64,000 bases of DNA from Eledone cirrhosa. Its lineage: Eukaryota. The DNA lies in contig OZ024741.1 of NCBI GenBank assembly GCA_964016885.1, forward strand, positions 118,420,001 through 118,484,000. Reading direction: 5' to 3'. Each line of letters starts with the position of its first letter. The first letter of the stretch is position 1. The notes below the pieces were generated by a model, which made no database searches, was not told the DNA's origin, and worked only from the letters and a program-made list of their open reading frames with translations. A program made the translations under genes and the position numbers. Positions 23,114 to 26,995 of this stretch are shown one piece after another.

Positions 23114-23940
23114 TTAGAAAGTGAGGTTTTTTTTACAAAATGAAAAATAACCGAGGTGTCCTACACGAGTGGGAGTATAAAGAAAAAGGGATGAAATCGA
23201 AAATGCAACTGATGTATATATATATACATATATATACACATATATATACATATATATACATATATATACATATATACATATATACATATATACATATATA
23301 CATATATATACGTATATATACATATATATACGTATATATACATATATATACGTATATATACATATATATATATATATACACATATATATATATATATACA
23401 TATATATATATACACGTATATATATATATATACATATATACATATATATATATATATACATATATATATATATATATATATACATATATATATACATATA
23501 TATACATATATATACATATATATACACATATATATACATATATATACATATATATACATATATATACACATATATATACATATATATACATATATATATA
23601 CATATATATATATATACATATATATATATATACATATACATATATATACATATATATACATATATATATACATATATATACATATATATACATATATATA
23701 CATATATATATACATATATATATATATATATATATATATACATACATATATATATATATATATATATACATACATATATATATATATACATATATATACA
23801 TATATATATATATATACATATATATATATACATATATATATATATACATATATATATATATATATATATAAAGAAAAAGGGATGAAATCGAAAATGCAAC
23901 TGAAGTCTTATTTTTTTTAAAAATATATATATATATTTAT
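23114..23940 (-). mobile_element. Neptune pLTR terminus unit 1: tail, ~33 bp of arm end, internal microsatellite, repeated arm end
   Basis: AAAGAAAAAGGGATGAAATCGAAAATGCAACTGA at ~23179-23211 and again from ~23870; same sequence as 26829 onward. Confidence 0.85.
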
Positions 23941-24048
23941 ATGTATATGTATATATATATATGTATATATATATATGTATATATATATATGTATATGCAT
24001 GTATGTATGTATGTATGTATATGTATGTATATATATATATATATATAT

Positions 24049-24819
24049 TATAAAGTGAGGTTTTTTTTACAAAATGAAAAATAACCGAGTTGTCCTACAC
24101 GAGTGGGAGTATAAAGAAAAAGGGATGAAATCGAAAATGCAACATATATATATATATATATACATATATATACATATACATATATATACACATATATATA
24201 CATATATATACATATATACATATATACATATATACATATATATACGTATATATACATATATATACGTATATATACATATATATATACACATATATATATA
24301 TATATATACATATATATATATACACATATATATATATATACATATATACATATATATATATATATACATATATATACATATATATATATACATATATATA
24401 TATACATATATATATACATATATATATACATATATATACATATATATATACATATATATATACATATATATACATACATATATATATACATATATATACA
24501 TATATATACATATATATACATATATATACACATATATACACATATATATACATATATATACATATATATACATATATATACATATATATACATATATATA
24601 CATATATATACATATATATATACATATATATATATATACATATACATATATTTATATATATACATATACATATATATACATATATATACATATATATACA
24701 TATATATACACATATATATACATATATATACATATATATACATATATATACATATATATATATATATATATATATATATACATACATATATATATATATA
24801 TACATATATATATATACAT
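24049..24819 (-). mobile_element. Neptune pLTR terminus unit 2 (tail plus internal microsatellite), interrupted by an RTE
   Basis: 24049-24143 matches 23114-23209; following TACA array shares CGTA and CATACA variants with 23212-23869. Confidence 0.8.
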
Positions 24820-26718
24820 ATCATCATCATCATCATCATCATCACCGTTTTACGTCCGTTCTTCCACGCTAGCATGGGTTAGACGGGTTGTCCTGTTGTG
24901 GGCAGTGTCTGGTCGGCTGACCATGCCTTGCTCATACAGGAACTGATCTGGCTTGATTTCTACAGCTGGATGCCCTTCCTAACACCAACCTCATTTACAG
25001 TGAGTGCTGGGTGCTTTTTCGTGGCGCCTACACGTCCACTTTACAGTGTGGGCTGGGTGCTTTTTTGCCGTGGCACCTCCACGACCACCTTGCGGTGGGG
25101 GGGGGGGGCATATTGTTTATATGCTTCAGCATGTACCCATGGGAGGTCGGGTACCCTGTATTACTGCGTGACGCCAGAAGTCACGGTCGTGTGTCATTGA
25201 CTTTGAGAGGTGTAGTTGGGTAAGGTCGGCTTTTATCACCTCATCCCAAGTCATCTTGGGTCTCCCCACTCCGCGGTTTCCATCAACTTCTAGTGCTCTG
25301 CACCTTTTTATGCAGCTGTCATCCTTCATACGCATCACATGTCCATACCAGCGTAACCGCCTCTCCTGCACGCAGCATTTGATTCCTCTTATGCTCAGTC
25401 TCTCTCTCAATTCATTTATGCTTTGTCGTTCACGTATATTACTGTTACACATCCATCGGAGCATGCAGGCTTCGTTTCTCTCTAATCTACGTAAGTCTTC
25501 CACCTTCAGCGCCCAGGTCTCACTACCATGCAACATCGCTGTTCGGATACACGCATCATACAGTCTGCCTTTCATTCTGAGGGAGAAGCCTTTTGCAGCT
25601 AGCAGTGGTAGTAGTTCCCTAAACTTCTTCCATCCCGTTCTTACCCTAGTTATTGTACTTTCTGAGCACCCACCTCCGTTGCTAATTCGGTCACCTAGGT
25701 AGCACCTACTGTTTCTACAGGGCCCTCCCAGAGATTGGTGGTACTTGTTTCCTGTGGCTGTTTGCTTGCTGTTTCAGCACAGCTGCTGCATGTGAATCCT
25801 ACATTCTTAATTAAGCTTCCTGAGATCCCGCTACATCTCTTGTGTACCCATTGTTTGCATTTGGGGCAAAGAATGGAGTTCCTACCTACACCTTTCCTAC
25901 ATACTGAGCAAGGCCATTTCCCTGAGGGGATCTGGGTTCTGTTTTCTCGTCTACTTATAAGGACCTTAGTCTTTGTCATGTTGACTTTGAGGCCCTTTCT
26001 CTCTAGTCCCTGCTTCCAGGTTTGGAATTTATTCTCTAGTTCTACCATAGATTCAGCTATGAGTGCGAGGTCATCAGCATACAGGAGTTCCCATGGGCAT
26101 CCGGTCTTAAACTCCTCCGTTATTGCCTGCAGGACTATGATGAACAGGAGAGGGCTAAGAACAGAGCCCTGGTGGACCCCAACCTGTACGCTAAATTCCT
26201 CGCTATACTCATTGCCAATCCTAACTTTGCTGACTGCTCCCCTATACATGGCTTGTACCGCTTTCACAAGCCATTCATCTACTCCTAGTTTTCTAAGAGC
26301 CCACCAGATTACTGCACGTGGAACTCTGTCAAAGGCTTTCTCAAGGTCGACAAATGCCAAGTAGAGTGGCTTACTTTTAGCTAGGTACTTTTCCTGTAAT
26401 TGCCTCACAAGGAAGAGCGCATCAGTGGTGCCTTTCCCTGGTACAAACCCAAATTGCATCTCGTCTATATTCACCCGGTCCCTAATCAGCTGTGCTATAA
26501 CTCTTTCTGTTACTTTCATGACCTGGTCCATCAACTTTATACCTCTATAGTTTCCTCTATCTAGTGCATCGCCTTTACCTTTGTAGCAGTTGACAATGAT
26601 GCTACTGCACCAATCTTTTGGTATGGCCCCCTCTAGTATTACCTGGTTAACGATACGTGTGGTTATAGTGTGACCTACAGACCCAGATGCCTTCAGCATC
26701 TCGGCAGCTATACCCGAT
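24820..26718 (-). mobile_element. 5'-truncated RTE-type LINE (RT, Cys-rich domain, 3' UTR, (GAT)n tail)
   Basis: [59 protein letters not shown]; one frameshift near 25700. Confidence 0.96.
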
Positions 26719-26901
26719 GTATATATACATATATATATATATATACATATATATATATATATATACATATATATATATATACATATATATATATATATAC
26801 ATATATATATATATATATATATATATATAAAGAAAAAGGGATGAAATCGAAAATGCAACTGAAGTCTTATTTTTTTTAAAAATATATATATTTATTTGGT
26901 T

Positions 26902-26939
26902 CCTTTACCGGTTTCGCAGTTCTTCTGCTTTTCAAAAGG
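26902..26939 (-). ncRNA. Hammerhead ribozyme, U3-A8 variant (inverted pLTR copy)
   Basis: Reverse complement of 30123-30160. Confidence 0.75.
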
Positions 26940-26995
26940 TGAGTTGAGATGGAGGGTCTGTGGTTTTTCTCACATCTGGTTGGTCTCTAAATGTT

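Follow-up and report, generated by a model that had tools for sequence, protein, structure and literature searches.

Between positions 23114 and 30233 of the window, the 64,000 nucleotides of Eledone cirrhosa DNA analysed here, a Penelope-like element (PLE) resides in TA-rich microsatellite DNA. The insertion is an otherwise ordinary, TA-targeting one of the Neptune type, and its peculiarity lies at the left end. Left of the ORF two units are found, each made up of a tail, a 30-33 bp repeat, a (TA)nTG array of reversed polarity and an arm (Table 1). The left-end anatomy is real: all coordinates which the first-pass annotation had given for the two units, 23114-23940 and 24049-26995, were confirmed, while the minus orientation proposed there applies to the inverted left arm only, the ORF of the element lying on the plus strand. 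The left arm (26830-26995) is a 99.4% inverted copy of 30067-30233. Array copy 2 measures ~790 bp in total, and is split by a LINE which we take to be of the RTE type; its junctions feature a 22-bp low-complexity direct repeat, and it presumably inserted after the left end had been rearranged. The 30-bp repeat is not a target-site duplication, because it is element sequence and differs in length between the units (33 vs. 30 bp).

Table 1. Parts of the element and its flanks, and the eight sister insertions located in arrays of the window
Feature	Coordinates	Strand	Remarks
Tail copy 1	23114-23179	-	~65 bp; adjoins host TA array; 98% identity to tail copy 2
Repeat of arm end, copy 1	23180-23212	-	33 bp; 5'-truncated stub end; exact 33-nt arm match
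Array copy 1	23213-23870	-	(TA)nTG, 658 bp; opposite to window polarity; 3 CGTA variants
Arm copy 1	23871 to ~23941	-	tail-less, ~70 bp; cut at pLTR-internal AT run
Spacer array	23942-24048	unassigned	~107 bp; window polarity
Tail copy 2	24049-24113	-	two private substitutions (24051, 24090)
Repeat of arm end, copy 2	24114-24143	-	30 bp
Array copy 2, tail-side part	24144 to ~24820	-	2 CGTA variants
LINE, taken to be RTE-type	~24821 to 26718	-	5'-truncated; RT and PHD-like finger; (ATG)n 3' end
Array copy 2, arm-side part	~26719 to 26829	-	
Inverted pLTR arm	26830-26995	-	tail-less, 166 bp; predicted minimal hammerhead motif (core at 26935)
PLE ORF	26996-29096	+	5'-truncated; RT, CX4CX2C linker, GIY-YIG
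3' region and pLTR	29097-30233	+	tail-less end at 30233; predicted hammerhead motif at ~30123-30160
Right-flank array	30234-31120	+	window polarity; candidate source of left arrays
Sister insertion	12137-12718		
Sister insertion	19039-19327		
Sister insertion	15836-16053		
Sister insertion	10165-10281		tiny stub
Sister insertion	62672-63123		
Sister insertion	58573-59079		classed PLE-like by anatomy only
Sister insertion	60572-61101		classed PLE-like by anatomy only
Sister insertion	45186-46340		classed PLE-like by anatomy only

The element and its neighbours

The ORF lacks ~72 N-terminal residues relative to the protein P0004, with which it shares 76% and 68% identity, and is interrupted twice, by a stop codon in frame near 27296 and by a frameshift near 27820-27870. 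Its GIY-YIG endonuclease domain is recognized by Pfam (E 1.5e-6, above cut-off), RVT_1 is carried by homologues of the ORF, and one Octopus protein model matched, at 70% over 17% of the query. As in EN+ PLEs, RT and C-terminal GIY-YIG belong to one ORF (broken in the present copy), the pLTR is accompanied by an inverted, 5'-truncated copy, and tails are found at one end only, none following 30233. Translations and alignment revealed DKG (not DKA), the CX4CX2C linker and a GIY-YIG with the CCHH pattern. DKG, a CX2-5CxxC linker and the CCHH pattern are given as features of Neptune and Nematis in PMC8557442; judged by these motifs the element is putatively a Neptune, the linker being shared by Nematis. 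Neptune-clade PLEs, as described in PMC8557442, combine the same RT, linker, GIY-YIG and DKG motifs with an inverted 5'-truncated arm, a one-sided tail, insertion in microsatellites and a pLTR hammerhead motif, all of which recur here. The element differs from them in the length of the tail (~65 bp vs. the published 30-40 bp), and in the reversed 0.7-0.8 kb array and 30-33 bp overlap interposed, at this one locus, between arm and tail.

A motif scan of the pLTR predicted a minimal type I hammerhead with a U3-A8 core, a 4-bp stem II and a palindromic stem III; a U3-A8 variant has been reported (PMC4209133). The MFE fold contains helices I and II, but with a z of -0.46 it is no more stable than shuffles. 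An Rfam search of the region returned no hammerhead family, and its matches, all sub-threshold, were mostly to miRNA families hitting the TA repeat.

Other elements reside in the window. A CR1-like LINE (31121-34662) features an open 1045-aa APE-RT frame, ends which are ~24-bp mutual inverted copies, and an apparent 22-bp direct repeat outside the ends; 8456-9121 is a 99.4% partial copy of it. On the minus strand, 41290-43615 carries an open 713-aa PLE-like ORF, P0124, directly behind a pLTR and tail, the tail entering the 5' region of the ORF. P0124 gave neither a Pfam match nor a tblastn match to P0004, and would therefore belong to a different PLE clade. A second, degraded Neptune-type element (37879-40171, minus strand, ~53% protein identity to P0004) has a hammerhead core of its own at 38071, and its flank retains the polarity of the window.

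Polarity, order and source of the left-end arrays

Interruptions of the TA arrays on the plus strand of the whole window are of the G type in 1738 cases and of the C type in 204. The bias extends over most of the 64 kb, regardless of the orientation of the inserted elements, exceptions being 17616-17664, 21348-22388, the left-end arrays and 44721-46632; the window may represent one ancestral array riddled with insertions. Both internal left arrays carry C on the plus strand, against the window polarity, and both polarity switches fall within a few bases of element ends. It had been noticed earlier that the arrays next to the three tail-less ends (23870, 26829 and 30234) carry G on the element strand. 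The observation holds, G lying on the outward element strand at each, but amounts to a single informative polarity event, because 23870 duplicates 26829 and 30234 follows the window polarity; counting three independent observations was rejected.

The two left arrays had also been credited with shared rare variants, CGTA and CATACA. The former is rare and common to both, five of its six matches in the window falling inside them (three and two); the latter was dropped as a marker, the 10-mer which holds it having 247 matches in the window. Arrays were compared as series of spacings between interruptions. The order of interruptions common to both left arrays, anchored at the arm end, scored 67, a value reached by none of 300 shuffles and none of 270 windows of other arrays; anchored at the tail end, the alignment likewise stood above all of them. 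The shared order indicates that the two left arrays are one array, or one event, copied twice.

The doubling might be an artefact of assembly, unit 1 then stemming from the other haplotype or from a chimera formed in low-complexity DNA: the window is very microsatellite-rich and includes a 200-N gap (9122-9321), and none of the contig pieces listed spans the compared stretch, which is no proof in itself. Such an error would account for the doubling, yet not for the array inside a single unit; the units moreover differ by two substitutions, a 3-nt junction difference, the RTE-type LINE and numerous changes by slippage, and their junctions coincide with landmarks of the element. We hold this explanation to be very improbable.

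Even less credible is the first-pass proposal that the RT of the element stutters in telomerase-like fashion, adding TA/TG repeats reiteratively at the arm end before it resumes. PLE RTs are sister to telomerase RTs (PMC8557442), the first letters of the tail are ATA, and each of the three tail-less ends is adjoined by an uninterrupted TA run, of 23-33 bp. A few TA units may have been added in this way. Regular repeats of a short internal template, the mark of a telomerase-like activity, were not found: interruptions are irregular, ordered, and of the same classes as those of host arrays far from the element, no TA/TG template unit lies at the junction, tail-less ends of sister insertions show no imposed polarity, and polarity is flipped at 21348-22388 where no element resides. 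Because the interruptions are ordered and host-like in class, stutter is hardly to be considered as the source of the arrays.

The right-flank array is a better candidate. Anchored at the arm, array copy 2 matches it with a score reached by one of 300 shuffles and by none of 250 other windows, under a main scoring scheme chosen after the spacings had been seen. Deprived of its first pure run, array copy 2 scored above all 157 matched windows under three scoring schemes; its result was equalled by 3, 4 and 9 of 120 block shuffles under the three schemes, and by 1, 4 and 4 of 47 rotations. When the 12 spacings at the far end of the right array are placed along array copy 2, they match at position 53 of 71, distally as expected, a fit equalled by none of 208 null windows. 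Array copy 1 resembles the right array weakly (13 of 300 shuffles, 5 of 272 windows, no signal under one of three schemes), the 12 far-end spacings do not fit it (57 of 224 null windows), and its local alignment is higher with the reversed right array (43.8 vs. 36.6). The CGTA-bearing distal part of the left arrays has no counterpart in the right array. Derivation of the left arrays by fold-back of the left host flank was rejected, the scores being reached by 71 and 97 of 300 shuffles.

Since array copy 2 resembles the right array in order from the arm, the left end likely consists of an inverted copy of arm plus right flank, which a template jump would have connected to a stub of tail; the comparison provides moderate evidence that left arm and array are an inverted copy of right arm and array. 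The earlier idea that the element copies the repeat it targets thereby survives partially, the array being likely a passenger made from a template and copied with tail and arm at least once; stutter and carriage by the whole family are not supported.

Copying of the right flank could have occurred at the DNA level. After a normal insertion with inverted arm and tail still contiguous, a template switch between the 166-bp inverted arms, made during replication or repair and assisted by the self-complementary TA repeats, would have copied the right flank backwards into the left pLTR, and slippage between the AT run of the arm and the host array would have duplicated the unit. This is the main rival of the interpretation given below, and its product would be nearly identical, an identical overlap, reversed polarity and likeness of left and right arrays all being predicted. 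It is in line with the reversed, ~1-kb array at 21348-22388, which has no adjoining element and which, at its left junction (~21345), mirrors the neighbouring array as a fold-back would, a likeness reached by none of 300 shuffles and none of 344 windows. It is also in line with the right array, which appears to resume as host array on the far side of the CR1-like insertion (a direct repeat of 22 bp, with a chance probability of 6.4%). The mirror at the right junction (~22400) of the element-free array is suggestive only, 18 of 300 shuffles reaching its score, and not significant. Plain tandem duplication should moreover repeat the host flank, but no copy of the left host flank was detected in the spacer, whose score of -1.4 was equalled in 84 of 522 null windows (19.9 for a same-size control). 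Re-insertion is mildly favoured over DNA duplication by the start of unit 1, which lies exactly at the tail end, and by the spacer, which does not resemble the host flank; we regard DNA-level fold-back as a serious though rather unlikely alternative.

Family copies in a related organism and sister insertions in the window

Four public runs were compared with 24036-24165, of which X4 gave 4 contigs. The family is very abundant in a related organism, being represented by 1485 contigs in X1, and 1153 and 1358 RAD reads in X20 and X21, the reads deriving from ~40 start places and having passed a human-read filter which may remove repeat-rich reads. The majority sequence in this organism departs from the window at 24106, 24107 and 24123, three fixed differences which point to a sister subfamily or species; at 24051 and 24090 it has the bases of unit 1, and those of unit 2 at these sites are therefore private. 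Over at least 12 TA bases outside the tail, depth was sustained at 437 of ~737 (X20) and 390 of ~703 (X21), from which it follows that most tail ends adjoin TA.

On the arm side, the largest of the loose-end classes listed comprise 323 (X20) and 396 (X21) reads with an arm-like consensus, not alternating TA; these are the best-supported among the listed classes, nine repeat-adjoining rows in X21 and 71 further rows standing outside the listing, and their loose ends have median lengths of 69 and 94 letters and agreements of 0.61 and 0.64, only the last consensus letters resembling the arm. Reads reaching 24131-24135 number 181 and 357, and end at the edge of the stretch masked in the comparison (24135-24165). 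The masked stretch includes the array-to-repeat junction, array carriers and the polarity next to termini thus falling outside the read counts. The direct join of arm and tail is common in the related organism, and a composite with an internal array may be present there as a minority. Database scans added no further locus: the 20-mer of the arm end hit nine loci in a metagenome scan, with matches of only 20-29 bp taken as chance; no P0004 relative was found among 67 pattern matches in GTDB genomes; and the junction motif had no locus in either GTDB genomes or viral contigs, collections which are mostly microbial.

Eight sister insertions in arrays of the window (Table 1) have arms in inverted orientation and are extended at a single end. 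They span about six families, with arms up to ~0.5 kb, some being perfect palindromes, and hammerhead cores are present in three of the families. The internal array is absent in all eight (longest internal run 12 bp), and polarity is the same on both flanks of each; five extension-less ends would need a flip under the rule that G lies on the element strand, and none is flipped. The constant polarity of the sisters and the element-free array at 21348-22388 together indicate that flips are not a general trait of PLEs, and can arise without one. A retroelement seeding its repeat should hold the repeat in its consensus and in most copies. Here the consensus next to the tail is arm-like in 323 and 396 reads, with the array junction masked, and none of the eight sister insertions has array or flip; the earlier claim of an array carried in the pLTR by the family at large is therefore not borne out.

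The array might all the same belong to a mobile composite subfamily, in which a donor of the form arm-array-repeat-tail is transcribed through the array, so that the array travels with insertions and spreads TA arrays. Array and end point are common to the two units, priming inside the repeat may have made the right array a further instance of this passenger, and the masking of junction-spanning reads leaves room for a minority subfamily. Its existence is made improbable by the best-supported loose ends, which join tail to arm, by the lack of repeat or tail after the right array in the window, and by the failure to find a second locus in the mostly microbial collections searched.

Doubtful to a higher degree is a nesting of insertions made independently of each other. 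A stub with 95 bp of tail end, and another end without tail, would have landed ~0.7 kb apart in a host patch already inverted, with the 30-bp repeat as mere overlap. The abundance of the family, the tail ends running mostly into TA, the tiny stubs (e.g. 10165-10281) and the inverted patches without elements all suit such a scheme. Nesting leaves the likeness to the right-flank array unexplained, and speaking against it is also the position of both polarity switches within a few bases of element ends.

Probable capture of the array by a template jump

The explanation we prefer, with a probability of about one in two, is that the reversed array of the left end was captured once by a template jump of the RT, and likely re-copied once next door. 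The left end is likely a one-off copying accident, and not a standing feature of the family. The steps described here are a reconstruction, drawn from the anatomy, the common origin of the left arrays, the arm-like continuation of tails in the related reads and the sister controls. Both nicked strands of a TA array would have primed cDNA, the right end starting from an inner site, and thus tail-less, the left end from an outer site, and thus tailed. The left cDNA would have run through the tail and 30-33 nt more, and then switched to a template in which the array follows the arm. Most likely this was a transcript reading through the right end of the element itself, or the flank of that end, or possibly a donor copy elsewhere. 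About 0.7 kb of array would have been copied backwards before the arm was re-entered; the jump and backward copying would leave the 30-33 bp overlap of element sequence and the reversed polarity. The composite of tail, array and arm would have been copied again ~110 bp leftward, and cut at the AT run of the arm, the RTE-type LINE inserting last. A switch at the RNA level and one at the DNA level are both compatible with the data.

Parts of this scheme have precedents. Inverted arms combined with a tail at one end and none at the other are a published PLE pattern (PMC8557442), which holds at the outer ends of the element and in all eight sister insertions. In Poseidon of Anolis (PAc), RT starts at two sites bounding the tail, and both strands are cut and the nicked strands extended (PMC11167929); two such sites explain one tailed and one tail-less end. 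PAc belongs to another clade, array capture and stutter do not figure in the available account of it, and initiation at two sites is extended here by analogy. Closest in outcome are the Penelopes of the rotifer Adineta vaga, where host DNA between pLTRs has been described, and read-through into simple-repeat flanks and template jumps have been proposed (PMC3846280). Pen1_Av spacers, an NRPS gene framed by pLTRs and N-rich inserts are given there as cases of host-DNA capture. As in the present locus, host DNA lies between pLTR parts, a captured segment being found also inverted upstream of the 5' pLTR; unlike in A. vaga, the captured DNA is here the target microsatellite, and lies at the arm/tail junction. 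Snake CR1 LINEs also carry a microsatellite to new sites (PMC3157835), as a regular 3' feature of very many copies, whereas one locus is seen here.

Inverted arms, one-sided tails and TA targeting are already described in PMC8557442, where the bias of Neptune for microsatellites is taken from a 2006 paper; both this bias and the way in which tandem and inverted PLE ends form are listed there among the questions still to be answered. A literature search, covering few subscription papers, retrieved no report of a target microsatellite captured at a PLE arm/tail junction.

Were the improbable composite real, a Neptune subfamily would have folded its target microsatellite into the mobile unit, transcripts would run from arm through array to tail, to be reverse transcribed from the tail, and each insertion would deliver a 0.7 kb TA/TG array in the polarity of the element. 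The outcome would be a self-feeding loop which builds the microsatellite load of the genome, and target choice would be linked to microsatellite expansion in very repeat-rich animal genomes. If the event is a one-off, as we favour, the locus preserves a clean trace of a template jump made during Penelope-type integration, consistent with the model of two start sites, for which the eight sister insertions offer a dense natural series; it would show that read-through into the target repeat can invert and duplicate 0.7 kb of that repeat.
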